A stretch of 64,000 nucleotides of DNA from Candidatus Hydrothermarchaeota archaeon (lineage in GTDB: Archaea > Hydrothermarchaeota > Hydrothermarchaeia > Hydrothermarchaeales > BMS3B), in contig WANX01000002.1 in NCBI GenBank assembly GCA_015521565.1, forward strand, positions 7,308 to 71,307, given 5' to 3'. Shown one piece after another: positions 4,410-62,129 of this stretch. The stretch's first letter is position 1, and the number at the start of each line of letters is the position of its first letter. The notes below the pieces were generated by a model that searched no databases, was not told the origin of the DNA, and saw only the letters and a program-made list of their open reading frames with translations. The position numbers were made by a program, and so were the translations under genes.

Positions 4410-4411
4410 AA

Positions 4412-8346: not shown

Positions 8347-8356
8347 AAATAACATT
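8347..8356. repeat. Left copy of a 10-bp perfect direct repeat (aaataacatt) flanking the AT-rich island
   Basis: An identical decamer recurs at 10445-10454. The two copies bracket the low-GC two-gene insertion. Confidence 0.5.
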
Positions 8357-8502
8357 TTCTCACATCAAGTGGCTGTGATATAGCCTGAAAGTATAGGCGA
8401 AGAAGCTGTTTTGTTTAAGAACCGCTTCCTACCAGAGCTTTTCGTTTTCCTTTTCAGGCTCTTTCTGAAGTTGATGTTAAAGTTATTCAGAGCAATACAG
8501 AA

Positions 8503-8513
8503 GGTTTAAATAA
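8503..8513 (+). promoter_or_regulatory. TATA-box-like element (gtttaaataa) about 30 bp upstream of the ATPase start codon
   Basis: Archaeal promoter geometry (TATA at about -27/-30) relative to the ATG at 8538. Confidence 0.4.
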
Positions 8514-8537
8514 CAATGCTTTAGAAATAAGATTTTG

Positions 8538-10417: not shown

Positions 10418-10444
10418 ATGTACTGTAAATAAGTGGTTGTCGAA

Positions 10445-10454
10445 AAATAACATT
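10445..10454. repeat. Right copy of the 10-bp direct repeat (aaataacatt) flanking the AT-rich island
   Basis: Identical to 8347-8356. Confidence 0.5.
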
Positions 10455-10779
10455 CCGGCTCTAAGCTCTATTCTCAGCCTCACCTGGAAGTTACATTGAG
10501 TGACAACTCCGCATTATGCTTCATGGCAAGCAACAATCGAAGCAACAGGCGTACAAGACCACTTTATTACTGGCAGAGCTACCACTCGAACATCTCTTCC
10601 TTCTCGTGCAAAAGAAGCAGCGGTAAATATATATGAAAGCAGAGATAAGCTTAGACTGCCGACAGAGGCTGAAAAGCGGATTGTGCCTGCACCCGGCGGC
10701 ACTGCTGTTGTGGTCAGACCTGAAGCTCTGGTCAGAGGCTGGCATACGGCAGCAAATACAATTTAGAGGTGAACTTATC

Positions 10780-16168: not shown

Positions 16169-16906
16169 ATGGCTTGGCTGGCAAACTTTGTTGTAAATGT
16201 GCTACCGTATATAACCTTCATAGTTTTTGTAGTGGGGGTTATATACCGCATCGCAGTGTGGTGGAGCAGACCATCGCCTGCGCCGATACCGGTGTTCCCG
16301 GGTCAGCGAACAGTCGGCAGCGCTATATCGAGGGTGCTGGCGGACGTGATAATCTTCCGCTCCCTGTGGCAGTTCCCCGGCAACCGCATCCTCTGGCTCG
16401 GTGCGTGGGTGTTCCATGTGAGCTTCCTCCTGATACTCCTGCGCCATCTGCGCTACTTCCTGGGTGAAGAGGCTGTGCCTGGCTGGGTTGCTGCGGTGCA
16501 GAGCCTCGGTATAGCAGCGGCGCTGGTGATAAGCGTGCCCCTTCTCTACCTGCTGATACGCAGAATTGTGCACGCCGACCTGAAGTTTATTTCCACGCCG
16601 GCGGACTACTTTGTGCTTCTTCTGATTCTCAGCGTGGTGCTCTCTGGCCTGTACGCAAAATACTTCTCAACACCCTTCGTGGTTGACGTGAAGTACGTGA
16701 TGCGCAGCCTCATGGCGCTGAAACCGGTGGATTTAAGCACTGTGACGCTTAACACGGCCTTCCTGGTGCACTTCTTCCTGGTGCAGGTGCTGGTGATGTA
16801 CATACCCTTCAGCAAGGTGATGCACCTGGGCGGGATCTTCTTTTCTCCCACACGCACCCACCACTTTGGTGGTGAGGCGCACACAAAGAAGCTGGAGGAG
16901 GCCTGA
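16169..16906 (+). CDS. HdrE/DsrM/NarI-like membrane di-heme cytochrome b subunit
   Basis: Five TM helices with His pairs placed as in the NarI fold. Immediately followed by the HdrD-like gene (stop and ATG separated by 2 nt). Confidence 0.7.
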   Translation: MAWLANFVVNVLPYITFIVFVVGVIYRIAVWWSRPSPAPIPVFPGQRTVGSAISRVLADVIIFRSLWQFPGNRILWLGAWVFHVSFLLILLRHLRYFLGEEAVPGWVAAVQSLGIAAALVISVPLLYLLIRRIVHADLKFISTPADYFVLLLILSVVLSGLYAKYFSTPFVVDVKYVMRSLMALKPVDLSTVTLNTAFLVHFFLVQVLVMYIPFSKVMHLGGIFFSPTRTHHFGGEAHTKKLEEA

Positions 16907-16908
16907 AA

Positions 16909-18669
16909 ATGGGAGAGCAGCTTGAGAAAATATACGATGTGGAGCTCAGGCCCGGGGCGGGTGAGGCTTACGTCTGCAACCTCACCAAGCCGGAATTTGC
17001 AGAGGCCATGAAGACCAACATTCCAAAGGAGCCCCTCCCGGATGACCAGATGGTGGAGGTGGCTCTCAAGCGTCTGGATGAGCTCCGCAAAGAGAGAAAG
17101 AGCATCCAGCTGTATCTGGACATATGTGTGCGCTGTGGCGCCTGCATGAAGCAGTGCCATTACTTTATTGGCACCGGCGACCCGAAAAACACGCCCGTGG
17201 GCAGGGCAGAGCTTCTGCGTAAGGTTTACAGGGCGCACTTCACCATAAGCGGCAAGCTCTTCGGCAAGCTGGTGGGTGCCGAGAAGCTCACCCCGGAGAT
17301 TTTGAAGAACGAGTGGTACAAGTACTTCTACCAGTGCTCAGAGTGCAGGCGCTGCTCTGTGTTCTGCCCCTACGGCATAGACCAGGCAGAGATTACCATG
17401 GCTGGCAGGGAAGTGCTCAACAGCGTGGGCCTGGCCACGAAGTACATCACCCAGGTAATTTCGCAGGTCTACAAGCACGGCAACAACCTGGGCATACCAG
17501 AGCCGGCGTTCAAGTACAACTGCCAGTTCCTGGAGGAGGAGATAAAAGAGAGCACGGGTGTTGATGTTAAGATACCCGTGGACAAGGAGAAGGCAGAGAT
17601 ACTCTACCTGCCCCCGAGTGCAGACCTCTTCACCAACACCGACACCATGATAGGCGTCGCCAAGGTGTTCCATGCAGTAGGTGCGGACTGGACGATGAGC
17701 ACCTACGCCAGCGAGGCCGCGAACTTCGGGCTCTTCTTCAGCTACGACGACCTCAAGGCGATTAACCTGCGCGTCGTCGAGACAGCCAAGAAGCTGGGGG
17801 CCAAGCTCGTCGTGTTTGGCGAGTGCGGCCACGCGTGGCGTGCTGCCAGGCAGTTCATGGAGGCGATGAATGGACCCCTCCCGTTTAAGTTCATGAACAT
17901 CCTGGAGTACACCGCAGAACAGATACGCAAGGGCAAGCTCAAAATCGACAAATCGAGAAACGACGACGTCGTTGTAACGCTGCACGACCCCTGCAACTAC
18001 GCCAGGGCGGGGGACCTGGTGGAGGAGACTCGCTTTGTGATAAAGTCGGTGTGCAACAACTTCGTGGAGATGGACGAAAGTGTTACCAAAGTTAAAACCT
18101 TCTGCTGCGGTGGCGGCGGAGGCCTGCTCACAGAGGAGATAATGGAGCTCAGGATGAAGGGCGGCCTGCCTCGTGCAACGGCGGTTAAAGAGGTGGTTGA
18201 GGCACATGGCGTCAACTATCTTGCCGCACCCTGTGCTATAGACAAAGCCCAGCTGCCGCTGGTAATGCAGCACTACGAAATACCCGTGCAGGTTGGTGGA
18301 ATCCACGACCTGGTGAGCAAGGCACTTATTCTTGAGGGTCAGGAGGAGTTCGAGGCAAAGAAGAAGGCCGAGGAAGAGGCTGCCAGGGCCGCGGCTGCGG
18401 CTGTGCCGGCGGTCTGCGGACTCTGTGATGCGGAGTTTGCCACCATGGACGAGTGCTGTGAGCATGCGGAGAAGGACCACAAGATATCCAAAGAGCAGTG
18501 CGACATGGTATGCGAGGCCAAAGAGGGAGCAGCCGCCGAGGCTGTGCCGGCGGTCTGCGGACTCTGCGATGCGGAGTTTGCCACCATGGACGAGTGCTGC
18601 GAGCATGCGGAGAAGGACCACAAGATATCCAAAGAGCAGTGCGACATGGTGTGTGAGTCGAAAAAATGA
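16909..18669 (+). CDS. HdrD/DsrK-like iron-sulfur CCG-domain subunit carrying a tandem Cys-rich C-terminal extension
   Basis: Two ferredoxin-like clusters (CVRCGACMKQC and CSECRRCSVFCP) and two CCG domains (HDPCNYA and TFCCGGGGG). The last ~95 aa are two near-identical 47-aa Cys-rich repeats. Confidence 0.75.
   Translation: MGEQLEKIYDVELRPGAGEAYVCNLTKPEFAEAMKTNIPKEPLPDDQMVEVALKRLDELRKERKSIQLYLDICVRCGACMKQCHYFIGTGDPKNTPVGRAELLRKVYRAHFTISGKLFGKLVGAEKLTPEILKNEWYKYFYQCSECRRCSVFCPYGIDQAEITMAGREVLNSVGLATKYITQVISQVYKHGNNLGIPEPAFKYNCQFLEEEIKESTGVDVKIPVDKEKAEILYLPPSADLFTNTDTMIGVAKVFHAVGADWTMSTYASEAANFGLFFSYDDLKAINLRVVETAKKLGAKLVVFGECGHAWRAARQFMEAMNGPLPFKFMNILEYTAEQIRKGKLKIDKSRNDDVVVTLHDPCNYARAGDLVEETRFVIKSVCNNFVEMDESVTKVKTFCCGGGGGLLTEEIMELRMKGGLPRATAVKEVVEAHGVNYLAAPCAIDKAQLPLVMQHYEIPVQVGGIHDLVSKALILEGQEEFEAKKKAEEEAARAAAAAVPAVCGLCDAEFATMDECCEHAEKDHKISKEQCDMVCEAKEGAAAEAVPAVCGLCDAEFATMDECCEHAEKDHKISKEQCDMVCESKK
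18400..18666 (+). repeat. 141-bp perfect-period tandem duplication (two copies) inside the 3' end of the hdrD-like gene
   Basis: Copy 1 is 18400-18540 and copy 2 is 18541-18666. Almost all differences between them are synonymous third-position changes. Confidence 0.9.
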
Positions 18670-19022
18670 AGGAGATCTCCCAGGCAACCTGGTTCACAGA
18701 GGTAACCTGTTCGAGTACACCCGTGGCGGTCCACTTCTATGCGGAGTGGTCACCTGCGTGCAGGGAGATAGAGTGCCTCCTTGAGAAGTACGAGCAGCGC
18801 TTAGCAGGAAAGATGAAGTTCGTGAAGATAGACATCGACGCCAACGAGGCGGTGCGCATCGCCAACCGGGTGATTGTACCACCCACCCTTATAATTTACT
18901 ACAAGGGGATACCCGTAAATGGCGTACCGGGGCCGCAGCCAGAGTGGGTGTACGAGAACAGGATACTTCGTGCCATCCGGCTCTACGAAAGGAGGCTGAA
19001 AAACATCCTAAGGAGGAGGTAA
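18666..19022 (+). CDS. Thioredoxin-fold protein with a degenerate active site (WSPAC)
   Basis: 118 aa. VAVHFYAEWSPACREI mirrors the thioredoxin WCGPC region but with a single Cys. Start codon overlaps the hdrD-like stop (ATGA). Confidence 0.5.
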   Translation: MKEISQATWFTEVTCSSTPVAVHFYAEWSPACREIECLLEKYEQRLAGKMKFVKIDIDANEAVRIANRVIVPPTLIIYYKGIPVNGVPGPQPEWVYENRILRAIRLYERRLKNILRRR

Positions 19023-19025
19023 ACC

Positions 19026-19553
19026 ATGAAGAGGTTGTTGATATTCATTGCGGCGCTGAGCCTAATGGTGCTCAGCGGATGTGTGGCTCCGCCTGAGAAG
19101 CCGGTTAAGGATTCCACGCTCAAGGAGCACCCCTCGCCAAAGGTGGACATGACCTACTGGAAAGCAAACCACGGCAAAGAGATTGAGGCTGGTAAGGCGA
19201 GCGAGGAGTCGTGCATTAACTGCCACCAGCCTGAGAACTTCTGCAACAAGTGCCACGCCTATGTGGGCGTGAGGCAGATAGAGGTCGGCACACCGCCACC
19301 GCCGGCGGCTGCAGAGGCTCCGAAGGAGGAGAAACCCGCGGAGACACAGCCTGAGGCGGAGGCCAAACCGGTGCTGCACGGCGAGGGCAGATGCGACCAG
19401 TGTCATGACGCCCCCACCCTGGAGGACATGCGCACAGGCTTGCACAAGCAGGCCTTTGAGAAGTTTGAGGGGCACAAGAACTTCTGCAGCGAGTGCCACA
19501 ACGTCCAGGAGACCTGCACCAAGTGCCACGCCCTGCCGGCGATAATGCAGTAG
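19026..19553 (+). CDS. Lipoprotein pentaheme c-type cytochrome
   Basis: Signal peptide with lipobox (LMVLSGC). Five CxxCH motifs: CINCH, CNKCH, CDQCH, CSECH, CTKCH. Pro/Ala/Glu-rich linker. Confidence 0.8.
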   Translation: MKRLLIFIAALSLMVLSGCVAPPEKPVKDSTLKEHPSPKVDMTYWKANHGKEIEAGKASEESCINCHQPENFCNKCHAYVGVRQIEVGTPPPPAAAEAPKEEKPAETQPEAEAKPVLHGEGRCDQCHDAPTLEDMRTGLHKQAFEKFEGHKNFCSECHNVQETCTKCHALPAIMQ

Positions 19554-34341: not shown

Positions 34342-35286
34342 GTGGAAATGCGAGAAAGGCTCAATCTGTTCCTCAGGGTTACCGAAGTTTTTGAGAATCA
34401 CGGCTACAGGCTTTCCGAGGCGTGTGTGCTTAGCAACTCCTGCTTCGACTTCTTCGCCCGCAGGGGAGAGCGTCTGCTTCTTGTGAAGGTGCTGGGAAAC
34501 ATAGACAGCCTGACCGAGACGCAGGCGGGCGAGATATCGCGGGTCGCCGCCACTCTGGAAGCTGCGCCCGTGGTGGTGGGCAGACGCAGGGGCGTGGAGG
34601 AGCTCCAGCATGGTGTGGTCTACCTCAGGCACGGCATAGCCTGCGTAAGCGAGCTCACGCTTGAGCAGGCGCTTGCCGGCGAGCACCCAGCGCTGCTGTG
34701 CTACCGTGGTGGCTACTACGCAAGCGTAGATGGCGAGCAGCTTCGCAGGCTGAGGCAGGCCCACGGGCTGAGCAGACCCGCGCTTGCAAAGCTGGTGGGA
34801 GTCTCCGCCAAGGCGATTTACAAGTACGAGGAAGGCGAGGCCGGCGCAACCTTTGAAACTGCGCTCAAGCTGGAGCGCGTTCTCGGCGAACCCCTGGTAA
34901 AGCCGGTGGATATCTTCCGCGTGCCGGGCGCAGGGCAAAGCCCCGCTCCGCCTGCGAGGCTGAAGAGGCTGTGCAGGCTGGGGTTTGAGGTGCTTCCCGT
35001 GAGGAAGGCGCCCTTCTCGGCGCTTACCAGGGGAGAGGGCAGGGTGCTCCTCACAAAGCTTGCAAAATGCCGCACCCGCGATGTGGAGGAGCGTGCGAGG
35101 CTGCTGAGGAGCATCTCCGCTACTGTGGAGAAGCGCGCCTTTATCCTGCTCGGCTCCGGCAGGGCGAGGAACATCTCCGGCATAGCGGCGGTTAGCCTGC
35201 GCGAGGTGGAGGAGATAGCCCGCGCGAGGGAGCTGCTGGAGCTTATAGAGGCAAGGGCTACGCCAGGCCAAGATGCCGGCGGATGA
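34342..35286 (+). CDS. Archaeal putative transcriptional regulator with a central XRE-type HTH (COG1395-like)
   Basis: HTH segment LRQAHGLSRPALAKLVGVSAKAIYKYEEGE flanked by archaea-specific N- and C-terminal domains. Confidence 0.65.
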   Translation: MEMRERLNLFLRVTEVFENHGYRLSEACVLSNSCFDFFARRGERLLLVKVLGNIDSLTETQAGEISRVAATLEAAPVVVGRRRGVEELQHGVVYLRHGIACVSELTLEQALAGEHPALLCYRGGYYASVDGEQLRRLRQAHGLSRPALAKLVGVSAKAIYKYEEGEAGATFETALKLERVLGEPLVKPVDIFRVPGAGQSPAPPARLKRLCRLGFEVLPVRKAPFSALTRGEGRVLLTKLAKCRTRDVEERARLLRSISATVEKRAFILLGSGRARNISGIAAVSLREVEEIARARELLELIEARATPGQDAGG

Positions 35287-36283
35287 GCCTCTTGTCCTCT
35301 TCGCTCGGGAGGAAGGGGAAGTTCCTGAGCACCTCACCCGGGCGCTCGTTGCCGTAGGGGCGGTTGCACGCCACCTCGCCGTCTCTGCCCCTGCAGCCGG
35401 AGGTCATGAAGGCCTTCCCCTCTTCTATCACCTCCTCCAGCACCTGCCTGCTCACCCCGAAGTCCACAACCTCGCCGCGCGTGGAGAAGCGCATGTCCTC
35501 GTAGCGCGCCAGGTTGCGGTGGATCAGGTACCGCGCGAGCTGAACCCTGCGGTACTGCTCTATGCCCGGCCTTTCATGCTCCTGCATCACAGAACCCGGC
35601 TCGGGGTAGAAGGCGAATAGGTGAGCCTCCGCGCCCGCGTCGTAGGCGCGCTGCACAGCGGCGAGCATCTCCCGCTCGCTCTCGCCCAGGCCGACGATAA
35701 GGTGGACGCTGACGTTGTACCTTCCAAAGCTCTCCACCGCCCAGTCGATTACGCGCCAGTAGTGCTCCCAGCGGTGGGGGCCCTGCATGCCGCGCCCTCG
35801 GAGGGCATCGAAGAGCTCAGGGGTAGCGCAGTCCACGGCGATGCCGCACATCTCAGCGCCCGCGCGTTTGAGCTCAGCAAGCATCTCCTTGTTCTTCATG
35901 AGCGTGGGTGAGATTAACGTTGAGATAGCCAGAGGCGTCTCCTCGCGGAAGCGCCTAACCAGGGTGAGCGTATCCTGATAGGCGCGGGGGTGCGTGACCA
36001 TTGAGATGCACACCCTCTCCAGGTGCTTGCCGTAGGTGTTCGCCCTGGCGATAACCTCGTCCGTCGCGAAGGTGGGCCAGTCCACGCGTATGAAGGTCCT
36101 GCCGCTCAGGGGCACGCGCTTCCTGCTCAGCCCGCAGTAGGCGCAGCTCGCCCTGCAGCCCTCGCTGTAGGTGAGCAGCAGGTTTAGAGCCTTGAGCCTT
36201 GCCCCGCGGTAGAACCTGCCCGGGAATAGCTTCAGCGTAATAGCAGCCGCCGTGGAGGTCTGCACATACTCCGGGCTCTCCAC
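35258..36283 (-). CDS. Radical SAM protein, candidate lipoyl synthase component (LipS1/LipS2- or RadSAM-type)
   Basis: CxxxCxxC cluster CRASCAYC. Last gene of the radical-SAM / LplA / GcvH-like operon. Confidence 0.7.
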   Translation of the reverse strand: MESPEYVQTSTAAAITLKLFPGRFYRGARLKALNLLLTYSEGCRASCAYCGLSRKRVPLSGRTFIRVDWPTFATDEVIARANTYGKHLERVCISMVTHPRAYQDTLTLVRRFREETPLAISTLISPTLMKNKEMLAELKRAGAEMCGIAVDCATPELFDALRGRGMQGPHRWEHYWRVIDWAVESFGRYNVSVHLIVGLGESEREMLAAVQRAYDAGAEAHLFAFYPEPGSVMQEHERPGIEQYRRVQLARYLIHRNLARYEDMRFSTRGEVVDFGVSRQVLEEVIEEGKAFMTSGCRGRDGEVACNRPYGNERPGEVLRNFPFLPSEEDKRLIRRHLGLA

Positions 36284-36735
36284 TACTCTTCCTCCAGCCT
36301 TGCTATCTCCTGCTCAATCCACGCCTTAATCTCCTCGCTCTCGCTCAGAAGCTCCTCGTGGCTGAGCTCCGCCTCGCTGCTTGGCTTCACCCTCACTATC
36401 CAGGCCTCGTAGGGTGACTGGTTCACCAGCCTGGGGTTCTCCATCACCTCGCGGTTAACCTCAACCACCCTCCCCGCCACGGGTGAGTAGAGCTTGCTCA
36501 CAAACTTCGCGGACTCAATGTTTGCGAAGGCCTCGCCCCTCTCGAGCCTCTCGGCGGTGACGGAGAGGTAGTTCAGGTATCCTGCGCTCTCGGCGAGGAA
36601 GGCGTCTATGCCGAGAAGCAGGGTGTCGCCCTCGCGCTTTACCCAGATGTGGGCATTCCTCCCTCTATAGTAAAGCCTGTCCAGGGGAAACTCGTACTCG
36701 CCAACCTTCAAAACCTGCTCTGCCTTGAGCTCCAT
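36283..36735 (-). CDS. Glycine-cleavage H-protein-like lipoyl-carrier protein (GcvH/LbpA-like)
   Basis: 150 aa with H-protein topology and a candidate lipoyl-lysine in IESAKFVSKLYSPVAGRV. Confidence 0.7.
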   Translation of the reverse strand: MELKAEQVLKVGEYEFPLDRLYYRGRNAHIWVKREGDTLLLGIDAFLAESAGYLNYLSVTAERLERGEAFANIESAKFVSKLYSPVAGRVVEVNREVMENPRLVNQSPYEAWIVRVKPSSEAELSHEELLSESEEIKAWIEQEIARLEEE

Positions 36736-37734
36736 TCAGCTACCTCCTGCAATGCTGCGGGCCGCCTCCTCAATGCGGGGGCTATACTCTAAGCTCTCGG
36801 CAAGGATATTTAAGATTTTCTCGTAGCTCGCCTCCCTGCCGAGAAGGCGCTCCTCGAGCTTCCTCACCCTCCTTTTACCTCTCCAGGCTCTTACCCATCT
36901 CAGCCTGCCCTCACTGCGCTCAGCGATTATCTCCACCTCACCAGCCCTTGCGAAGGCCAGGTAGCACCCCTCGGCGATTTTCAGCTCCCGCGCTCGCCTG
37001 CCGGGCATGAAGAGCCACTCTCTGGAGAGGTACTTCCCCTCCAGGCGGTGCATCTCCCGTGCTATCTCTGGGGTCAGCCTCGCCTCCTCGAGTTCCCCGA
37101 AGAGCTCCTCGAAGTTCCCTATCAGTGCGCGCTTAACCTCCTGCGGGGAGAAGTCGCCCAGCTGCTCCCTCAGCGTGGTCAGCCTCTCCCTCATCAGCCT
37201 CTCCGCCCTCGCCCGCATCACCTCACTTGGCAGGCGGAGCACCCTGCTCATGAGCGCGCGGTCAAAATCGAAGAGGATGCTGCCGCTCAGCACCTTGCAC
37301 TCGCCTATTAAGCCTGCACCGTTGCCCGAGATCTTCCTCCCGTCCACCACAAGGTCGTTCGCGGGTTTGTAGCGCGCCTCCAGGCCAAGCTCGCGGTAGG
37401 TTGCGATAACCGGCGAGAGAAACTTCCTGTAGAAGGTTTCATTTCTTACAGGCGTGTGCTCAGCATCGCGGCGGACAATCACGTGGTAGAAGAGCTGCTC
37501 CCTGTCCAGCAGAACTATGCCCCCGCCTATCTCCCGCCTGAAGTAGGGTATGCCCCGCCTCCTCATGAACCCCAGGTCGAGCTCCCCGGGGGAGTTGAAT
37601 AATCCCAGGCAGGCGTAGCACTCGCGGGTGCGCTGCACCACCACCGCCTCAACCCCGAGCCTCGCAAGCGCGTGGTAGATGAGCTGCGTTTCCTTCCAGG
37701 ACATAAAGCCCAAGTCGAAGAGTTTCACCGACAT
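36736..37734 (-). CDS. Lipoate--protein ligase family protein (LplA-like)
   Basis: BPL/LplA catalytic-domain architecture. Conserved Lys-containing GRKISGNGAG region, analogous to the LplA GRKISGSA motif. Confidence 0.7.
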   Translation of the reverse strand: MSVKLFDLGFMSWKETQLIYHALARLGVEAVVVQRTRECYACLGLFNSPGELDLGFMRRRGIPYFRREIGGGIVLLDREQLFYHVIVRRDAEHTPVRNETFYRKFLSPVIATYRELGLEARYKPANDLVVDGRKISGNGAGLIGECKVLSGSILFDFDRALMSRVLRLPSEVMRARAERLMRERLTTLREQLGDFSPQEVKRALIGNFEELFGELEEARLTPEIAREMHRLEGKYLSREWLFMPGRRARELKIAEGCYLAFARAGEVEIIAERSEGRLRWVRAWRGKRRVRKLEERLLGREASYEKILNILAESLEYSPRIEEAARSIAGGS

Positions 37735-37737
37735 GGC

Positions 37738-38697
37738 TCACACCAGTGTGCAGCAGAGCTCAGAGAACCTCAGCTCAAGTCCGCGCTTCTCCGCATATTC
37801 AAGCGCCTCCTCGGTGGGATAGGCGATGGTGTTTACCCCGGCGTCTATGGCGAGGGCCTCAATCTCCGCCTTGCTCCCCGCCGGCTTGGCGCAGCCCAGG
37901 TTCAGCTTTGCAGAGGGGTTCAAAATCCTGGCAACCGCCACAAGCCTTGCAACCTCCTCCGCAGGCGGTGGCTCAACGCCTTCGAAGGGCGTGCCGTAGA
38001 GCGGGGAGAGCACCACCACCACAATCACCTCGGGCTCAGCTCTTGTAATTATGCGTAGCGCCTCGTACTCGCCGCGAAACTCGCCGCGGTATAAGCCGGC
38101 GACGATGTGCGGGGCTATGCTCAAGCCTGCACGCCTTAAATTCTCAAGCGCCCTCGCGTAGTCAGCTGGCGCCCTGTCCAGGTGGTACACCTCCCTTATA
38201 GTCGCCTCGTCGCCTATCACGTCCAGGAGCACCTGCTCCACGCCAGCCCGCCTGAGCGCGAGCGCATCCTCTTCGCTCACAAGGCCTGAGTGCACTATAA
38301 CCCTGAGCCCCATCTCCCTGAGCTTCCGCATCGCTGGCAAAAAGTCGCGCAGGGGCACGCGTCCATCTCTGGTTGCGCCCCCGCTTATGAGCACTCCCCT
38401 TGCACCCCGCTCCGCAAGCCTTCTGCCCAGAGCTACCAGCTCCTCCCCGCTCGCCACGTGGTGCATGCTCTCCAGAAGCTTTCCCCTGCAGTGCTCGCAG
38501 CGAAGCTCGCAGGCTTTGCCTGTGACGCTGACGTTCACAAAGCTTCCGGGAGAGTTTCTGAAGTTCGCCACCTCATAGCGCTTGGCGCTGGGTGCGCTCA
38601 CATAGAGCACGTCCTCAAAGTTCTTCTTCCTGAGCTCCCACGCTGTGCGCAGAAGCTCCTCCAGCGGCTTATCCCTGAGCTTCTCAATCGCACGCAT
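37738..38697 (-). CDS. Radical SAM protein, second candidate lipoyl synthase component
   Basis: CxxxCxxC cluster CELRCEHC. First gene of the operon. Confidence 0.7.
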   Translation of the reverse strand: MRAIEKLRDKPLEELLRTAWELRKKNFEDVLYVSAPSAKRYEVANFRNSPGSFVNVSVTGKACELRCEHCRGKLLESMHHVASGEELVALGRRLAERGARGVLISGGATRDGRVPLRDFLPAMRKLREMGLRVIVHSGLVSEEDALALRRAGVEQVLLDVIGDEATIREVYHLDRAPADYARALENLRRAGLSIAPHIVAGLYRGEFRGEYEALRIITRAEPEVIVVVVLSPLYGTPFEGVEPPPAEEVARLVAVARILNPSAKLNLGCAKPAGSKAEIEALAIDAGVNTIAYPTEEALEYAEKRGLELRFSELCCTLV

Positions 38698-38729
38698 CGC
38701 CAGAAGCTACGCTGCGGGGGGATAAATAA

Positions 38730-39446
38730 TTAACGCAGCAGAAAGAGCGCCGCACCCGCGCCCGAGAGTCCGCCCGCAAAGCTTGAGAGGAGATTCACGC
38801 CGGCGTTGCTCAGCATTCCGCGCCGCTCCAGAGTGGCGCCCAGCAGACTGTCGAAGTTGAATCCTATTATGCCGCCCACCAGCGCCGAAATAAGGCATGC
38901 CTCAAGCGGGGCAATACCCAGGACGAAGGCGAGCAGGCCTATCAGCAACGCCCCTCCGAATCCGGCGAGTTCGCCAAGCGGGGTGATGCCGCCGTTGGTG
39001 CCGTGGGGAACCTTTTCCAGGGTTGTAATAAGCACAGGCCTGCGCCTGCTGAGAACGCCAAGCTCAGAAGAAAGCGTGTCCGCGGTAACAGTGGCAACAC
39101 TTGCTATGTAGCCCGCTGCAAAAAAAGGTGAGCTGTCCCCAGCGTAGTACAGTCCGGCGAACACCGCCGGGAGTGCTCCATTGGCAAGTACATTTATAAC
39201 CCTTCTCCGGCCACCATCGGGCTCAGATACATTGAGCTTCCTCTTGTACGCATACCTGTAGCGAGTTGCCGCAAAGCCGAGAAGGAGAAAGCTGAGCAGA
39301 AGCAAAAGCCAGGCAAAGCCTGCTGAAAAATATACAAACGCCCCCATGAGCACCGCCAGTGCTGTTCCTCTGGCATCCAGAACCCCCTTCCAGTATATGA
39401 TAGCTCCTGCAACAAGGCACACCAGCAGGGGGAGATACATATCCAT
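38730..39446 (-). CDS. DUF92/TIGR00297-family integral membrane protein
   Basis: Polytopic membrane protein with a Gly-rich C-terminal half typical of DUF92. Confidence 0.6.
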   Translation of the reverse strand: MDMYLPLLVCLVAGAIIYWKGVLDARGTALAVLMGAFVYFSAGFAWLLLLLSFLLLGFAATRYRYAYKRKLNVSEPDGGRRRVINVLANGALPAVFAGLYYAGDSSPFFAAGYIASVATVTADTLSSELGVLSRRRPVLITTLEKVPHGTNGGITPLGELAGFGGALLIGLLAFVLGIAPLEACLISALVGGIIGFNFDSLLGATLERRGMLSNAGVNLLSSFAGGLSGAGAALFLLR

Positions 39447-39470
39447 AAACCTCCGCGGAGGAGGTTTCCT

Positions 39471-40100
39471 CTACGCCTCTCCTTCTGCAGCAGCGACGAC
39501 TGCCTGGGGCGCTTCCTCCGGGTACCTGAGCACCTTTATCTTCCTTACCTCCACCCGCTTCAGGGGATATATCCTGCTCGCTTCTCTGTACATGCTGGCA
39601 GAGATTTTGCCCGCCACAACTTCCTGCACAAAGGCATCGAGGTCCCTGCTCTCAGCAGCCTCCCGAATCATGTCCACGAGAATCCTGCGTATCGCCCGCT
39701 CCTGCGAAGTCTGGGCCCTCCCGAAGGCCAGGGCTATGACGCGTATCCTGAGCCTGTGCCCGTCCTTCGTTGTAACGTCCACTATCCCCTCAACACGGGT
39801 GCTCTTCCTCCTTATCTGGCTGCGCATGTACTCACGGGAAAGGCTCTGCCCCTTGAAGCGGGTGTAGGCGTTGCTCCCGCGCACATCCACTATCTGAAAC
39901 CTGAGCTTTATATGCTGCTTTGTGAAGTCCCCGCTTATTTCCTTCATGGTGGTCTCAATAACGCGCCCGATAAGCTGCTCAGGGCTGCTCGCTATGGTTT
40001 CGCCCACCTTCACCTCACCGAACATCTTCGGAGCAAGGATGTCGTACCACCTCTTGGTCTTCCAGGTGTCTATCCTGCGCCTCTTAATAGCCCTTGCCAA
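39471..40100 (-). CDS. rps3ae: 30S ribosomal protein S3Ae (S1e)
   Basis: Collinear with archaeal S3Ae (MARAIKRRRIDTWKTKRWYDILAP...). Confidence 0.9.
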   Translation of the reverse strand: MARAIKRRRIDTWKTKRWYDILAPKMFGEVKVGETIASSPEQLIGRVIETTMKEISGDFTKQHIKLRFQIVDVRGSNAYTRFKGQSLSREYMRSQIRRKSTRVEGIVDVTTKDGHRLRIRVIALAFGRAQTSQERAIRRILVDMIREAAESRDLDAFVQEVVAGKISASMYREASRIYPLKRVEVRKIKVLRYPEEAPQAVVAAAEGEA

Positions 40101-49311: not shown

Positions 49312-52300
49312 CTATTGCTCCGGCCTCCTTCCCAGTAGCAGCAGCGGCAGCACCGCTATGAGTGCCACAAAGGTTGGACCGCAGATACCCTTTTTCTCAG
49401 CGGGCTCAGAGGGCTGTGGTTCTTCCGGAGCTGGCTCCGGCTTCTTTTCGGGCTCTGGCACCTTCTTTACAGGTGGAGAGGTCTCCGGCTGTTCCTGCGG
49501 GGAAACCGGTGCGGGAGGTTTCTCCTCAGGCGCCGGGGCAGCTGATGGCGGAGGGCTCGCCACCTCCTCCACCTGGGCGAATATATCCCTGAAACCCGAG
49601 TTCTCCCTGCCGGTGATGGCAAACCAGCTGAAGCCCGGTGTTTCCGCGGTGTAGTAGAAGGTTCCGTTCTCCACCTTTTCAGGTCTGGTGGTCAGCTTCT
49701 CCCATTTCTTGTTTTCATTCAGGCGGTACATTGCCACCGTTGACGGGTCGATGTCGTTGTCCCTGAGCCAGGCCTCCTTCACCAGGAAGGTTATACTGGC
49801 TTTCTTTACATAGGTGCCGGGCTTGCTGTACTTTATCAGTAAGTAACTGTAGAGTCTGCCTGGTGCGGGATCGAAAATCACCCAGTCCGGCTTCTTTGAG
49901 TAGGTGCTGACTCTGACCTTTGCATAGTGCTGGTCCCGGGCGGCGAAGACTTCTATACTGGAGATGTGGGGCACATACTTCCGGTTGAAAACTGCCACAT
50001 AGCTTTCGCCTGCCTTTATTCTGGGAATCTCCACGGTATTCTTCGGCGCACCGCCGCCACCGCCGCCTGCTGAAGGTGGCGGGCTGGCTGTGGTAAAGCT
50101 GAATTCAGCGCTCTGGTTGGAGTGGCCAGCTCTGTCGGTGCTGTTTACCACAAAGTAGTACCTGGTTCCAGAGCTGAGCCCCGTCAGTTTGAGGGTGTGG
50201 GCTGTTTTTGGAGTGGTGTTGCCGACGCTCCAGGAGTACTTCCCGGAGGAGGTGCCGTAGAGCACAAGGCTGCCAGCAGGTTCGTCTGTCTGCCAGCTGA
50301 CTACGGCACTGCTCTGAGTAACAGAGGACACCTTGACGCCGGTTATCACCGGCGGGGATATGTCAACACCCATGGGGGCAAAAACGCTGAAGCGGGTGAG
50401 GTTGGAGTGCACATACCTGCCGGCAGTGTTAACCGCGTTTGTACCCGGGACTGGCTCCCAGCCGGTGCCGTTGTACCGCCATATGCGCAGGGTGCTCTCA
50501 TTTACACCGGCACTGCTGATGTCCGAGGGGGTGTAGCTGAAGTTGATGTACACCCAGGCGCTGCTGGTGTTGGTGATGTTCAGATACTTGCCCAGGCTCC
50601 TGTAGCCCGCAGGCTCCAGGGCCGGCGATGAGGTGGCGTTTATAATTATATCCCCGGTGAAGCTGAGGTTGAGCTTCACCCCTCCAATTGATGTCTCTGC
50701 CACGCGTGTATTCGGGGCGAAGGATGCCCTGAAGTCAATGCTGTTCTGAATCAGTGCAACCCGGTTCAGCACATTGCTGTCGGAGCTGTCTATCAGGACC
50801 CCGCTGCCGGAGTGTTTTACTGTGACGTTCTGCAGCGTATTGCTCTTGCTACTGGAACTGATTCTGATACCACCGCCCGGGTTTGCCTCGATGGTGGACC
50901 TGACAAGCCTGTTGTTGCTGGAGGAGAGGAAGTATGCTCCGATGTAGCTCGAGCTTATTCTGCTGTCTGAGATGTTGTTGCCGCCGGAGTAGTTGAGGTA
51001 GATGCCCATCTTGGAGTTGCTGCTGGCGGTGACGTTGATTATGATGTTGTTCTCTGACCTGTGCAGCAGGACTCCGTAGTCCCCGTTGGAGCCGGCGTGG
51101 TTGTCCTCAATTGTGGAAAAGTTGGAATTTTCCAGATGTATTCCGCTCCTGTTGTTGGCGGTGGCGTTGTTACCCTTTACGGAGTTCAGCAGGGAGCTGT
51201 AGATGTAGACCCCGCTGTAGTTGTTCCCTGCGATGCGGTTGGTGTAAATCTGGTTCTGATTGGAGGCGTCCAGCACAATACCATGCCTGTAGCTCCCCGA
51301 AACTGTGTTCCCGGAAAGGGTGACGTTGGTGGAGCGCACAATCTCCACACCGTACTTTCTGCTGGAGCTTATTGTGTTTCCGCTGATAAGATTGTCTCTG
51401 GACCTGTCCATGAGGATACCCCACAAATTGCCGCTCAGGGTGTTGTGGCTGATGTTGGTGAGGTTGGACGACTGCAGGTATATGCCCTGGTTTAAGCTGG
51501 TGCTTATAACATTCCCGGAAAGCAGGTTGCTGTTCGATGACTCCAGAATTACGCCATAGGTGTTGGAGGTAAGGTTGTTGCCGCTGAGGGTGTTGCTCAC
51601 ACTGCTCATGTTCAGATGAACACCCGCCAGGGTGTTGTTTACCAGAGTGTTGTAGCGTATCTGGTTGCCTCTGGAGGTCTCAAGCAGAATGCCGGAGACG
51701 TTTATAGTGTCCTTTATGATGTTGTCATCCACTGTTGTGTCGTTCACATTCTGGAGATAGACGCCTGTTGAGTTGCTCCCGGTTATGGTATTGTTCAGAA
51801 CTGAGCTCAGGTTGGAGTTGACAGACCATATACCGAATTCGTTCTCTGAAAGGGTGTTGTTGAAAATCCTGGCGTAGCTGCTGGCGTCGATGACAATGCC
51901 GTCGTAGCTTCTGTTGACCGTGTTGTTCTCTATGCTGGTGCTGTTGGACCTGAGTGAAATTATGGCGTATCGGGAGGCGAGGGTTATCTGATTCCCGGCA
52001 ACCTCCACGCTGTTCGACCTCTCGACAAATATGCCATCTGTGCCTGAGCTTATCCGGTTCATAAGCGCCTGCGTCGAGCTGGAGCGCAGGAGGTAGATGC
52101 CGATGTTTGCGGAGTTTATTATTGTGTTGCCCTTTACAACACTGCCTATGGCATCGGTGAGGTCAATGCCATCGTCCAGATTATCCCTGAGGGTGTTGTA
52201 CCTAACCACATTGTTGAGACCGCCTATGGCTATGCCGTCCTGTGAATTGCCAGATGCAAAGTTGTTCTCCACGGTGTTGGCATCAGAGCTCACCAGGAAG

Positions 52301-53655
52301 ATTCCTGTGCCGGTGTTCTGGCTGGCATTATTGCCTCTGATTGAGTTGACCTTTGAGTTCTGAATGTATATCCCTGTTGTACTGGAAACGATGGTGGTGT
52401 TCTCTACCAGACTGCTGTTTACCTGGTTGAAACGAATTCCGGAGTTCCCCCAGTCAGTAAGTCTGAGATTTATCACCTTCACATTCACCAGCGTCGTGGT
52501 GGCGTTGTTCACATAGACTCCGGAGGTCCCCAGGGTGTCCACACCGTCTATTACCATGCCCGCGCCGTCAAAGACCACATTGCTCGAGGTTATGTTTATG
52601 CACGCCGTGGTGGTGCTGTTTATTATGCTGGTGTTCAGCACATAATAGCCGGGAGAGCTCAGTGCAGCGCAGGTGCTTATGTTGTTTACAGGTGGAGGTG
52701 TGGACAGGGGCAGGTAGTCGATGTTGGTGGAGTTGATTGTGTAGGTGGAGTCACAGATTCCGTCGTGGTCTGCATCGGTGCAGCTGTCACTGTGGCCGGT
52801 GCCGCTGGGAGAGCCCCAGTAGTTGCCACCGATGAAAGGCCCCCCAACTATGTTACCGCCTGCCCTCAGGCTTGTGTTCCACTTATTTGTGGACACAGTC
52901 TGATAGAAGTGGATGTTGGCGGTGTTGTTGAATTTGTTGTTGTAAATCAGGTTGTCAGCGGGAGCTAAAACGAAGTATATCCCATAACTGCCGCTGTTTT
53001 CTATGACATTACCTGAGATTATGTTACCGCTGGCCGTGGAACGGTATATATAAATTCCGTTTATTTTTGAATTGAGAATCCGGTTGTTTATTATCGTATT
53101 ATTTCTACCGGAAATATAAATTCCATGGTTGTTGCCCTCTATGAGGTTGTCGCTCAGATTGTTTCTGCTTCCGGTGATAATACCGTAACTGTTGAAAGAG
53201 GCGTTGCTGCCGGTAATTGTGTTGTCCTGACCATCAACCTGAATCCCCGAATAGATGTTGGAGCTTGCCGTTACCCCGGCAACCGCTCCTTTTCCGGCTG
53301 TGAAGTAAATTCCTCCGTACCAGTCGGTGAGGGTGACGTTCTTAACTGTAATGTTGGTGAAGGCGACTCCTGAAATCACGGGCACATAGATGCCGTAGGT
53401 GTAGGAGCTGTTGTCCACACCGTCTATTACCCTGCCCGCGCCGTCGAAGACCACATTGCTCGAGCTTATGTTTATGCACACCTTGGCGGTGCTGTTTATT
53501 ATGCTGGTGTTCAGCACATAATAGCCGGGAGAGCTTATAACTGTGCATGAGTTCACAGCAGTTGCGGCATGCACCGCCGGCAGCAGAGTTAACACAAGCA
53601 TAAGCCCCAGAACCCGCAATAAAGACCCACTCCTTGTGATGGATGCCATCGCCAT
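49312..53655 (-). CDS. Giant secreted parallel-beta-helix surface glycoprotein (1447 aa) with Fn3 domain, Pro/Thr-rich stalk and PGF-CTERM-like anchor
   Basis: Signal peptide. Dozens of about 22-aa right-handed beta-helix (NosD/pectate-lyase-like) repeats with N-x-S/T sequons. Fn3 domain (VVSWQTDEPAGS...YYFVVNSTD). PEPAPEEP stalk. C-terminus GPTFVALIAVLPLLLLGRRPEQ. Confidence 0.8.
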   Translation of the reverse strand: MAMASITRSGSLLRVLGLMLVLTLLPAVHAATAVNSCTVISSPGYYVLNTSIINSTAKVCINISSSNVVFDGAGRVIDGVDNSSYTYGIYVPVISGVAFTNITVKNVTLTDWYGGIYFTAGKGAVAGVTASSNIYSGIQVDGQDNTITGSNASFNSYGIITGSRNNLSDNLIEGNNHGIYISGRNNTIINNRILNSKINGIYIYRSTASGNIISGNVIENSGSYGIYFVLAPADNLIYNNKFNNTANIHFYQTVSTNKWNTSLRAGGNIVGGPFIGGNYWGSPSGTGHSDSCTDADHDGICDSTYTINSTNIDYLPLSTPPPVNNISTCAALSSPGYYVLNTSIINSTTTACINITSSNVVFDGAGMVIDGVDTLGTSGVYVNNATTTLVNVKVINLRLTDWGNSGIRFNQVNSSLVENTTIVSSTTGIYIQNSKVNSIRGNNASQNTGTGIFLVSSDANTVENNFASGNSQDGIAIGGLNNVVRYNTLRDNLDDGIDLTDAIGSVVKGNTIINSANIGIYLLRSSSTQALMNRISSGTDGIFVERSNSVEVAGNQITLASRYAIISLRSNSTSIENNTVNRSYDGIVIDASSYARIFNNTLSENEFGIWSVNSNLSSVLNNTITGSNSTGVYLQNVNDTTVDDNIIKDTINVSGILLETSRGNQIRYNTLVNNTLAGVHLNMSSVSNTLSGNNLTSNTYGVILESSNSNLLSGNVISTSLNQGIYLQSSNLTNISHNTLSGNLWGILMDRSRDNLISGNTISSSRKYGVEIVRSTNVTLSGNTVSGSYRHGIVLDASNQNQIYTNRIAGNNYSGVYIYSSLLNSVKGNNATANNRSGIHLENSNFSTIEDNHAGSNGDYGVLLHRSENNIIINVTASSNSKMGIYLNYSGGNNISDSRISSSYIGAYFLSSSNNRLVRSTIEANPGGGIRISSSSKSNTLQNVTVKHSGSGVLIDSSDSNVLNRVALIQNSIDFRASFAPNTRVAETSIGGVKLNLSFTGDIIINATSSPALEPAGYRSLGKYLNITNTSSAWVYINFSYTPSDISSAGVNESTLRIWRYNGTGWEPVPGTNAVNTAGRYVHSNLTRFSVFAPMGVDISPPVITGVKVSSVTQSSAVVSWQTDEPAGSLVLYGTSSGKYSWSVGNTTPKTAHTLKLTGLSSGTRYYFVVNSTDRAGHSNQSAEFSFTTASPPPSAGGGGGGAPKNTVEIPRIKAGESYVAVFNRKYVPHISSIEVFAARDQHYAKVRVSTYSKKPDWVIFDPAPGRLYSYLLIKYSKPGTYVKKASITFLVKEAWLRDNDIDPSTVAMYRLNENKKWEKLTTRPEKVENGTFYYTAETPGFSWFAITGRENSGFRDIFAQVEEVASPPPSAAPAPEEKPPAPVSPQEQPETSPPVKKVPEPEKKPEPAPEEPQPSEPAEKKGICGPTFVALIAVLPLLLLGRRPEQ

Positions 53656-59935: not shown

Positions 59936-60180
59936 CTTTATATACCCGTCTGATTTAACTTAATCAGGATGAAGGACAGGCTACGCACAGCGATGCACGC
60001 GCTTGCGCTGCTTGCCGTTATCGGCGGCATATACCGCGCTGCTGGAGAGGTGGACGACGCCTTTGCGGCTCTCTACATGATTCAGTACCTGCTGTGGGCT
60101 ATTCTGTTCGAGGTTGTGGCACTGAACCTCAAGGATGACCGCAAGTTTTGATGCTCCTGTTAAGATTTTCCAAGCACTGG

Positions 60181-61299
60181 ATGCGACTGCTCAGCAAGCT
60201 CGCCGATAGCGGAGTTTCCACCATTGCGGAGAGGGTGCTCGCGGGAGAGGAGCTCTCAAAGCGCGAGGCGTGTGCGCTTATGGAGGAGGGAGACCTCTAC
60301 CTGCTCGGCTTCCTCGCCGACGAGCTGCGCCGCCGTCAGGTGGGCGACCTCGTGAGCTTCGTGGTCAACCGCCAGATAAACTACACCAATGCCTGCGTTG
60401 CGGGGTGCAAATTCTGTGCCTTCTACCGCCCGCCGAGAAGCGGAGAGGCCTACACCTTAAGCGTGGAGGAGGTGGTGGAGAAGGCTTCGCAGGCGGCGCG
60501 TGAGGGTGCTACCGAACTGCACATCGTGGGCGCCCACAACCCCGAGCTGCCCTTCGAGTACTACGAGAGCATGCTGCGCGAGCTCAGAAGGCGCTTTCCA
60601 GAACTCCACCTCAAGGCGTTCACCGCCACGGAGATAGCCTTCTTCTCCAGGAATTTCGGGATGAGCATACGCGAGGTGCTGCTTCGCCTTAAGGAGGCGG
60701 GCTTGAGGAGCATGCCAGGCGGCGGGGCGGAGATACTGGACGAGGAGCTCAGAAGGCAGCTGTGCCCGGGCAAAGCTTCTGCGAGGGAGTGGCTGCGTGT
60801 GATGCGCACCGCCCACGAGCTCGGGATAAAAAGCAACGCAACCATGCTCTTCGGTCACGTGGAAAGCCTGCGCCACCGCGTGGAGCACATGCTAAAGCTG
60901 AGGGAGCTCCAGAAGGAGACGCGCGGCTTTATGTCATTCATCCCTCTGGTCTATCATCCCGAGCACACACCGCTTAAGCGCTCTATGCCGGAGCTGATGC
61001 GCACTTCCGCAGTGGATGTGCTGCGCACTATCGCTGTTGCCAGAATTCTGCTGGGCGAGAGCTTCCGCAACATCCGCGCCTACTGGGTGATGCTGGGCAA
61101 GAAGCTCGCCCAGGTGGCGCTGCACTACGGCGCCAACGACCTGGATGGCACCGTGGTTGAAGAGCGCGTGGCCCATGCGGCCGGGGCAGAGACGGAGCAG
61201 TTTGCAACAAGGGAGGAGCTTGTAGCGCTGATACGCGAAGCCGGGCGAGTGCCTGTGCAGCGCTCCACTGACTACAGGATAATCCAGAGGTGGGATTAG
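60181..61299 (+). CDS. Radical SAM enzyme of the MqnC/MqnE (CofH-like) family, futalosine menaquinone pathway
   Basis: NYTNACVAGCKFCAF radical-SAM cluster in the family-typical context. The start is uncertain (60148 or 60181). Confidence 0.75.
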   Translation: MRLLSKLADSGVSTIAERVLAGEELSKREACALMEEGDLYLLGFLADELRRRQVGDLVSFVVNRQINYTNACVAGCKFCAFYRPPRSGEAYTLSVEEVVEKASQAAREGATELHIVGAHNPELPFEYYESMLRELRRRFPELHLKAFTATEIAFFSRNFGMSIREVLLRLKEAGLRSMPGGGAEILDEELRRQLCPGKASAREWLRVMRTAHELGIKSNATMLFGHVESLRHRVEHMLKLRELQKETRGFMSFIPLVYHPEHTPLKRSMPELMRTSAVDVLRTIAVARILLGESFRNIRAYWVMLGKKLAQVALHYGANDLDGTVVEERVAHAAGAETEQFATREELVALIREAGRVPVQRSTDYRIIQRWD

Positions 61300-62129
61300 T
61301 GCGCCTCGGAGAGACGCATTTTAAAAACACCGACTTCATATATCACGCAATTCGCAGCGGTGCAGTCGAATGTTCCGGGATAGAACTTGTGAAGGCCCAT
61401 CCTCCAGAGCTTGCCAGACTTCTGCTCAGCGGCAAAATAGACGCCGCACCTACGTCGTCAATAATGTATGCGCTCCATCCGGAAGAGCTTGCCATTCTGG
61501 AAGGGCTCTCAATAAGCGCCCCCGCCGGTACGGGTAGCATACTGGTGTTTTCACGGTGTGCCTCCTGCCTGAAGGAGCTGCGGGGAAAAAGAATCGCCAC
61601 CACAAGTACCAGCGCAAGCTCGGTGGCACTTCTCAGGATACTCCTCAGGGAAAAGGGGATAGACGCAAAGCTGGTTGTTAACCATCCCCCCAGGCTTGGA
61701 GAGATGCTCCGTATCGCCGATGCTGCCCTTCTCATTGGGGACCACGCCCTTGTGGCGGGATACCTTCATCCAGAGCTTGTGGTAGCCGACCTGGGAGAGG
61801 AGTGGCGCTCACTGACCGGGCTGCCCATGGTTTATGCACTCTGGCTTGTTACTGATGAGTTCGCCCGGCGCACGGAGATGGTGGAGGAGCTTAAGAGTGT
61901 GCTGGTGCAGGCGAGGCGCTATGCGTATGAGCACCACCACGAGCTCGCCCGGGTGTTTGCGGAGCAGCTGGGCATTCCCGCGCGGGTGATGCGGGAGCAT
62001 CTGCGCTGCCTTGATTACAACCTGAGCAGCAGGAATCTGCGGGGGCTTAAAAGATTCTTTGAACTCGCATCCAGGCACGGGATAATTCCCTCCGTACCCG
62101 AGCTCAGATTCGCCGGAGGAGAGGGATGA
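61290..62129 (+). CDS. mqnA: MqnA-like chorismate dehydratase (futalosine pathway)
   Basis: Periplasmic-binding-protein-like fold with a family-like N-terminus (VRLGETHFKNTDFIYHAI). Lies between two mqnC/E paralogs. Confidence 0.65.
   Translation: MGLVRLGETHFKNTDFIYHAIRSGAVECSGIELVKAHPPELARLLLSGKIDAAPTSSIMYALHPEELAILEGLSISAPAGTGSILVFSRCASCLKELRGKRIATTSTSASSVALLRILLREKGIDAKLVVNHPPRLGEMLRIADAALLIGDHALVAGYLHPELVVADLGEEWRSLTGLPMVYALWLVTDEFARRTEMVEELKSVLVQARRYAYEHHHELARVFAEQLGIPARVMREHLRCLDYNLSSRNLRGLKRFFELASRHGIIPSVPELRFAGGEG

Follow-up and report, generated by a model that had tools for sequence, protein, structure and literature searches.

A Hydrothermarchaeota operon predicted to assemble the lipoyl cofactor with LipS1, LipS2, a short, apparently fused ligase, and its own H-protein-like carrier

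What do two radical S-adenosylmethionine (SAM) proteins, a lipoate ligase, and a protein named after the glycine cleavage system do together in an uncultivated, deep-subsurface archaeal phylum? The question arises from a 64-kb stretch of DNA from Candidatus Pyrohabitans (Hydrothermarchaeota), referred to here as the window. Four co-directional open reading frames (ORFs) on its minus strand (positions 35258-38697) carry the NCBI labels "radical SAM protein" (twice), "lipoate--protein ligase family protein", and "glycine cleavage system protein H". We identify them, from 5' to 3', as LipS1 (37738..38697, 319 aa), an apparently fused, short-form Lpl(AB)-type lipoate/octanoate-protein ligase (36736..37734, 332 aa), an H-protein-like lipoyl carrier (36283..36735, 150 aa), and LipS2 (35258..36283, 341 aa). 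A 3-nt spacer separates the LipS1 and ligase genes, 0 nt lie between the ligase and H-like genes, and the H-like gene overlaps that of LipS2 by 1 nt. Judging from their sequences, the four genes very probably belong to the published sLpl(AB)-LipS1/LipS2 type and make up a self-contained line for assembling the lipoyl cofactor, one that encodes its own acceptor.

LipS1 matches Pfam Radical_SAM and scores 241.9 bits on the NCBIfam model NF053742, which passes the equivalog cutoff of 230. The characterized Thermococcus kodakarensis proteins, TkLipS1 and TkLipS2, served as references; Neti et al. 2022 (PMC9585515) provide their sequences and defined the ligands of their auxiliary clusters by mutagenesis. 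LipS1 and TkLipS1 find each other in reciprocal BLASTP searches (35% identity, E = 7e-42). The motif CELRCEHC of LipS1 provides the radical SAM CX3CX2C triad (C63/C67/C70), which aligns one-to-one with that of TkLipS1, and the auxiliary ligands C269, C315, C316, and H197 correspond to Tk C230, C276, C277, and H159.

LipS2 pairs with TkLipS2 in the same way (31-33% identity, E = 1e-50, reciprocal BLASTP). The cross-pairs of window and Tk LipS proteins are not significant (E = 0.26 for LipS2 and TkLipS1). LipS2 matches Pfam Radical_SAM; its top NCBIfam family is NF053743, and the next-best family reaches 62 bits. The triad C43/C47/C50, within CRASCAYC, equals Tk C39/C43/C46, and Tk C85, C276, and C279 have their counterparts in the auxiliary cysteines C92, C297, and C306. 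A six-residue insertion between C297 and C306 gives a CX8C spacing where TkLipS2 has CX2C. Exactly six LipS2 cysteines, the triad and the three auxiliary residues, are invariant in 119 homologs of at least 54% identity. Gene identity, orthology, the conservation of catalytic and ligand residues, and synteny are established directly for this operon.

No ORF in the window carries the CX4CX5C and RSSY motifs of LipA, and the 64 kb hold no second LplA/LipB-family member and no H-like paralog. LipT is encoded neither in the operon nor elsewhere in the window. The original prediction, made from the DNA letters, had described four tightly packed genes for a radical SAM protein, a lipoate-protein ligase, an H-like carrier, and a second radical SAM protein, with no canonical LipA or LipB evident, and had likened the radical SAM pair to LipS1/LipS2. 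The junctions (+3, 0, and -1 nt), the family matches, and the missing LipA- and LipB-type genes bear out this description, and the NCBIfam scores, the reciprocal matches to the Tk pair, and the complete set of ligands support the LipS1/LipS2 assignment.

The ligase has a LplA-B_cat catalytic domain (Pfam PF21948, 1e-32), and its residues 47-310 align with the two-domain ligase 1vqz. The RRxxGGG loop is present, and the segment DGRKISGN aligns with DGKKFCGN of 1vqz. The catalytic lysine, equivalent to K133 of the Escherichia coli enzyme, is kept as well. Residues R66, R67, G70-72, D127, K134, and G137 are invariant in the 26 short and 53 long ligases found in LipS clusters. The long form, of ~520 aa, occurs in LipS clusters outside Hydrothermarchaeota (L018:11110-12651; L019-L089) and combines the LplA/B catalytic domain with Lip_prot_lig_C and a C-terminal DUF116. 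In Thermoplasmatota, the long and the short ligase stand on opposite sides of the H-LipS2 pair.

The carrier is a clear member of Pfam GCV_H (PF01597, 4e-28). Its K77, in the motif ESAK, aligns with the lipoyl-lysine (ESVK) of the solved H-proteins 1onl, 3klr, and 1dxm. In GcvH scoring across related loci, the H copy directly 5' of LipS2 always reaches 75-91 bits and second H paralogs reach 115-145 bits. In 98 of 100 neighbor-joining bootstraps, these embedded copies make up a clade of their own; the run raised a numerical warning for a small number of highly divergent pairs. Their shared motif is ESAKFVS(K/R), as against SGKWxG in the paralogs and ESVK(A/T)(A/T)S in the three solved GcvH proteins. 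All embedded-H proteins keep the lipoyl-lysine. The window carrier has no cysteine, 24 of the 30 clade members likewise lack any, and none has the cysteine pair that marks LbpA.

The arrangement recurs well beyond the window. A scan with a LipS2 alignment over one genome per species returned 534 relatives, and the best 80 loci were analyzed with the window proteins as queries. In most of these 80 loci, as in the operon described here, LipS2 is paired with LipS1 and a lipoate-protein ligase. Three architectures were distinguished. The Hydrothermarchaeota loci have the same layout as the window, [S3Ae-DUF92]-LipS1-Lpl(330 aa)-H-LipS2, and the LipS1-Lpl-H-LipS2 order recurs in nine loci of this phylum (L006, L007, L010-L016), with proteins down to ~56-70% identical. 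Thermoplasmatota have Lpl(330)-H-LipS2-Lpl(long, ~520 aa, DUF116), often with a second, more GcvH-like H gene, and the Lpl-H-LipS2 sub-module is present in ~20 loci of this phylum. Chloroflexota, Thermodesulfobacteriota, Bacillota, and some Thermoproteota carry Lpl(long)-LipT-LipS2-LipS1 or LipS2-LipS1-Lpl(long), and no H gene is embedded there. An H gene followed directly by LipS2 occurs in 30 loci from two archaeal phyla. Since the four-gene order recurs across diverged loci, it is not a product of chance. The trio of short ligase, embedded H, and LipS2 is common to the first two architectures and is therefore a conserved module.

Several of the related loci carry further genes close to this module. 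HdrB-like (CCG) genes lie within a few kb of it in four Thermoplasmatota loci (L003, L018, L021, and L050). In L003:1-6725, HdrC, HdrB, an FrhB-like protein, HdrC, HdrB, and HdrA (1104 aa) are encoded together with a second H paralog beside Lpl-H-LipS2, and L018:11110-17330 has HdrC-HdrB-HdrC-HdrB next to its module. These two sets look like an sHdr-like complex of unusual composition tied to lipoate-carrier genes; sHdr is reported in <1% of Thermoplasmatota genomes. In two metagenomic archaeal contigs (L004:12612-14358 and L008:8787-10518), the genes just 3' of H-Lpl-H-LipS2 encode a TusA-like sulfur carrier, a cysteine desulfurase (Aminotran_5), and a small ferredoxin. These could supply sulfur or Fe-S to the sacrificial clusters of the LipS proteins, or form a sulfur relay. 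In L001:621-6955, from an archaeal genome (GCA_054014855.1), ~6 kb between the ligase and H-LipS2 genes hold an N6/N4 DNA methylase, a NucS-like nuclease, and three ATPase_2/DUF234 paralogs. This insert, which splits the module, looks like a mobile or defence insertion.

The operon may have its own promoter. The 32-nt spacer between a DUF92 gene and LipS1 contains a TATA-like box, TTATTTAT (38722..38729, minus strand), 24 nt 5' of the LipS1 ATG. Eight Hydrothermarchaeota relatives were compared with the window at this site. In seven of them (L006, L010-L014, and L016), as in the window, a box of the form (A/T)TATTTA(A/T), or ATATTTTTAT in L014, stands ~24-26 nt before the start codon of LipS1, despite diverged flanking bases. 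The eighth, L015, has no clear match to it. This conservation suggests a putative archaeal promoter for a leaderless four-gene transcript that would be independent of the genes upstream.

The upstream genes are co-directional with the operon and encode the DUF92 membrane protein (38730-39446, minus strand) and, further upstream, the ribosomal protein S3Ae (39471-40100, minus strand). The S3Ae-DUF92 pair (38730-40100 in the window) also lies directly 5' of LipS1 in L006, L010-L013, and L016. DUF92, an integral membrane protein, has no obvious connection with lipoate, so this adjacency may be mere synteny. On the other side, an HTH_3 gene (34342-35286) converges on the operon and overlaps the 3' end of LipS2 by 29 nt.

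How would the four proteins work together? The ligase would use ATP to adenylate free octanoate, or scavenged lipoate, and load it onto K77 of the carrier. LipS2 would then add sulfur at C8 by means of a SAM-derived 5'-deoxyadenosyl radical and a sacrificial auxiliary [4Fe-4S] cluster held by C92, C297, and C306. The predicted activity of LipS1 is insertion of the second sulfur, at C6, into 8-mercapto-octanoyl-lysine, which would yield the lipoyl-carrier; its auxiliary cluster would be bound by C269, C315, C316, and probably H197. Each synthase would use up one auxiliary [4Fe-4S] cluster. Since the operon encodes no LipT, the reductant would presumably be ferredoxin. The order of sulfur insertion, octanoate as substrate, and the H-like protein as primary acceptor would follow what experiments found in T. 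kodakarensis and in bacteria.

Several points weigh against this assignment. PMC10332631 raises the question of where octanoate would come from in an archaeon that lacks acyl carrier protein. The ligase misses every NCBIfam ligase cutoff (TIGR00545, 105.1 against 280 bits; NF053750, 68.5 against 480; NF053751, 61.4 against 550) and therefore belongs to a divergent subfamily. Pfam detects no accessory domain PF10437 in it, though the 1vqz alignment reaches residue 310. The carrier falls under both GcvH cutoffs, at 90.8 against 117 bits (TIGR00527) and 81.6 against 115.85 bits (PRK01202). Finally, LipS2 remains below the NF053743 equivalog cutoff (229.1 against 270 bits).

The shortfall of LipS2 is shared by its relatives. 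As a control, TkLipS2 scores 385.6 bits on NF053743, and all nine members of the CX8C clade tested score 218-236 bits. Low-scoring members include neighbors of cutoff-passing LipS1 in bacterial Lpl-LipT-LipS2-LipS1 clusters. Because the sampled CX8C proteins all fall in this range, the low score is a trait of the clade and of the model cutoff rather than of this gene. The entire CX8C LipS2 clade appears to lie under the NCBIfam LipS2 cutoff. Such proteins therefore receive only the label "radical SAM protein" from the Prokaryotic Genome Annotation Pipeline (PGAP), as seen in the window and in L006, L018, L030, L035, L044, and L073.

The two radical SAM proteins could instead have nothing to do with lipoate and be enzymes of the biotin synthase type or others of the BioB/HydE family. 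Many LipS homologs, CX8C LipS2 included, carry the Joint Genome Institute (JGI) label 'biotin synthase', Pfam gives LipS1 a weak BATS-domain match, and the nearest solved structures are BioB, PylB, and HydE. A PDB sequence search with LipS2 gave nothing at E ≤ 0.01, and Foldseek on its AlphaFold2 model (predicted local distance difference test score 90.6) matched only generic radical SAM barrels (BioB, PylB, HydE, LipA; template modeling score ~0.5), so there is no solved LipS structure for comparison. The 'biotin synthase' label was once misapplied to the T. kodakarensis LipS proteins as well (PMC9585515). On the BioB model, LipS1 reaches 58 bits against a cutoff of 225 and LipS2 is not reported, and both proteins match characterized LipS1 or LipS2 reciprocally with every ligand kept and have a fixed genomic link with a lipoate ligase and a lipoyl carrier. 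We regard this alternative as exceedingly improbable. The LipA model gives LipS2 only 17 bits; LipA, too, was rejected as an identity of the pair. The original prediction had named a grouping with BioB or HydE/HydG, or a carrier without its lipoyl-lysine, as refuting it. Neither is the case: LipS1 scores 241.9 bits on its own family against 58 for BioB, LipS2 229 against 62 for its next-best family, and K77 is in place when the carrier is aligned with solved H-proteins.

If the operon makes lipoate, as is very probable, what does the carrier do with it? It could be a dedicated assembly scaffold or relay that passes lipoate on to other lipoyl domains. Bacillus subtilis offers a precedent, with GcvH as the obligate intermediate in its LipM-LipA-LipL route (summarized in PMC10332631), and in Thermoplasmatota loci that also have a more GcvH-like paralog, the embedded H belongs to a separate clade and the module is flanked by a second ligase-family protein (the long, DUF116-bearing form). 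A long ligase also lies 3.5 kb downstream in the Hydrothermarchaeota locus L015, from genome SZUA-158. The 64-kb window, however, contains no long ligase, amidotransferase, or second lipoyl-domain protein, and transfer by the long ligase is pure speculation. The tables of Zhou 2020 (JdFR-18, SZUA-158, SZUA-236, and HyVt-292) list E1/E2 only in JdFR-18, a LipA-type genome, and neither E1 nor E2 in SZUA-158, which has the same operon as the window; this pattern is suggestive and bears on SZUA-158, another genome than that of the window. A relay role is conceivable, if doubtful. Just as conceivable is that the carrier is a divergent GcvH and serves GcvP/GcvT, be it for glycine cleavage, which is what uses lipoate in T. 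kodakarensis, or for the reductive glycine pathway. The strong GCV_H match, the GcvH of Thermus thermophilus as closest PDB match (2e-21) with the lysine region kept, and the NCBI label agree with this role. The scores below both GcvH cutoffs, where paralogs in related loci reach 115-145 bits, speak against it, as do the 0 of 16 Hydrothermarchaeota genomes with GcvH in the survey of Tanabe 2023 and the lack of gcvT and gcvP (and of E2) among the window ORFs scanned. A search of Carr 2019 gave no relevant hits on GcvPT or E2 in Pyrohabitans. A third role, in which an LbpA-like carrier would itself be the end user and partner an Hdr-like disulfide reductase complex of sulfur or redox metabolism, strikes us as unlikely. 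In its favor, the hidden Markov models of Tanabe 2023 find 'LbpA' in 31% of Hydrothermarchaeota genomes but no GcvH, embedded-H loci adjoin HdrC-HdrB-(FrhB)-HdrC-HdrB-HdrA clusters (L003, L018) or CCG genes (L021, L050), and TusA and cysteine desulfurase genes lie near the module in L004 and L008. LbpA is marked by two strictly conserved cysteines, near the N- and C-terminus, some archaeal LbpAs excepted (Cao 2018, PMC6067878). This pair is missing from the window carrier and from all 30 members of its clade. LbpA genes are further recognized by a place in or beside an shdr cluster (HdrA + HdrB1C1 + HdrB2C2), which the window carrier does not have, and sHdr is found in 0 of 16 Hydrothermarchaeota genomes. 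The window does encode an HdrC-HdrB pair (3897-5263), but it is single and 31 kb away, the ORFs scanned include neither HdrA nor a complete sHdr set, and HdrBC-like pairs are widespread in archaea; as an sHdr remnant, the pair was on these grounds rejected as evidence. The likeness to sHdr loci that the original prediction had drawn thus holds for the assembly enzymes and breaks down for the carrier, which has no LbpA cysteine pair, and for sHdr itself, which is not in the window.

We speculate that the embedded, cysteine-free ESAKFVS protein may represent a third functional class of H-protein, neither GcvH nor LbpA, which in anaerobic archaea would evolve in concert with LipS2 and a short ligase of its own. 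This protein might act as an obligate lipoate scaffold or donor, or be the sole lipoylated protein of the cell and work with an Hdr-type or other disulfide oxidoreductase. We consider this idea somewhat improbable. If true, it would bear on the question posed by Neti et al. 2022, namely how lipoate is used in archaea that have LipS1/S2 and lack 2-oxoacid dehydrogenase E2.

Beyond the lipoate operon, the window encodes several redox and other proteins. The HdrC-HdrB pair belongs to a plus-strand run (3897-6030) that includes an HdrC-like 2x[4Fe-4S] protein (3897-4409), an HdrB-like CCG protein (4412-5263), and a response regulator with a winged-helix domain (5284-6030). The HdrB-like protein scores 150-170 bits against the HdrB-like proteins encoded beside Lpl-H-LipS2 in Thermoplasmatota. 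Another plus-strand run comprises a NarI/DsrM-like membrane subunit (16169-16906), an Fe-S protein of 586 aa that has a dicluster domain at its N-terminus and no Pfam CCG match (16909-18669), a thioredoxin (18666-19022), and a 175-aa protein without Pfam match (19026-19553). Together, these genes (16169-19553) resemble a membrane redox module of the DsrMK/HmeCD type to which a thioredoxin is attached. An MqnA-type (VitK2_biosynth) gene between two CofH/MqnC-type radical SAM genes (60148-63226, plus strand) indicates a putative futalosine route of menaquinone synthesis. The GC content drops to 0.36 at 8001-10500, compared with ~0.55 in the flanks. This trough holds an AAA_21/AAA_15 (AbiEii/OLD-like) ATPase gene (8535-9932) and an overlapping ORF of 162 aa (9929-10417), a pair that looks like a horizontally acquired island, possibly for defence. 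A 1447-aa ORF on the minus strand (49312-53655) begins with a signal-like hydrophobic segment.

With these assignments, four generically named genes become a coherent and testable cofactor-assembly pathway in an uncultivated, deep-subsurface phylum. The annotation gap around CX8C LipS2 appears to concern 534 species-genome matches, and Hydrothermarchaeota, Thermoplasmatota, Chloroflexota, Thermodesulfobacteriota, and Bacillota are among the phyla of the 80 loci analyzed, next to others. A compact four-gene set with its own acceptor is also a convenient heterologous system for LipS1/LipS2 acting on a native protein substrate. The wider question is what lipoate does in strict anaerobes that have no reported protein at the GcvH threshold and no sHdr and, in one genome with the same operon and a published annotation, no E1/E2.

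How does the operon compare with known systems? The LipS1/LipS2 pathway rests on biochemistry in T. kodakarensis (PMC9585515) and on genetics and heterologous modification in bacterial sulfur oxidizers (PMC10332631). Genome-neighborhood networks place LipS1/LipS2 with a ligase, an H protein, and HdrA/B (Neti et al. 2022, PMC9585515). The pathway has been mapped across GTDB, Hydrothermarchaeota included (Tanabe 2023, PMC10332631). The S4 Table of that study lists, for 16 Hydrothermarchaeota genomes, LipS1/S2 with Lpl in eight, sHdr and GcvH in none, "LbpA" in 31%, and "E2" in 81%. The system is therefore no novelty, since the sLpl(AB)-LipS1/S2 pathway is published and this phylum is among those for which it has been recorded. 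Our additions are modest and consist of a distinct embedded-H clade in a fixed module with an apparently fused short ligase, a CX8C LipS2 clade that the NCBIfam cutoff shuts out, and a conserved putative promoter.

The canonical LipA/LipB (or LplA) route leads to the same product, lipoyl-lysine, by the same radical SAM chemistry with a sacrificial auxiliary cluster. There, a single LipA with a CX4CX5C and RSSY auxiliary site inserts both sulfurs, C6 first, whereas the window, which has no such ORF, encodes two synthases. T. kodakarensis provides the closest characterized counterpart. Its LipS1 (TK2109) and LipS2 (TK2248), which work with Lpl-N/Lpl-C (PMC9585515), are orthologous to the window pair and have the same triads and auxiliary ligands. 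They act on octanoyl-lysine on an H-type protein, and the window pair is predicted by analogy to do likewise. In T. kodakarensis, a distance of >130 genes separates the two LipS genes, and LplA and LplB together make up the ligase, whereas the window has one operon with an apparently fused ligase and an embedded carrier. The LipS2 proteins also differ, with CX2C and 386 bits on the NCBIfam model in T. kodakarensis and CX8C and 229 bits in the window.

The bacterial sLpl(AB)-LipS1/LipS2(-LipT) systems (PMC6067878, PMC10332631) resemble the window in an Lpl(AB) ligase (fused in the bacteria, apparently so in the window), LipS1/LipS2, and a nearby GcvH-like acceptor, and LipS2 of the window is 54-58% identical to that of bacterial Lpl-LipT-LipS2-LipS1 clusters. 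Compared with bacterial sHdr sulfur oxidizers, the window has no LipT or sHdr, and its carrier lacks the LbpA cysteine pair. Its ligase is of the short, 330-aa type, whereas the sampled bacterial clusters have the ~520-aa type. The typical archaeal cluster, lipS2-lplA-lplB-lipS1 (Tanabe 2023), shows the same 'sandwich' with ligase genes between the radical SAM genes; in the window, however, the ligase is one apparently fused gene and the H-like gene is set between the ligase and lipS2.

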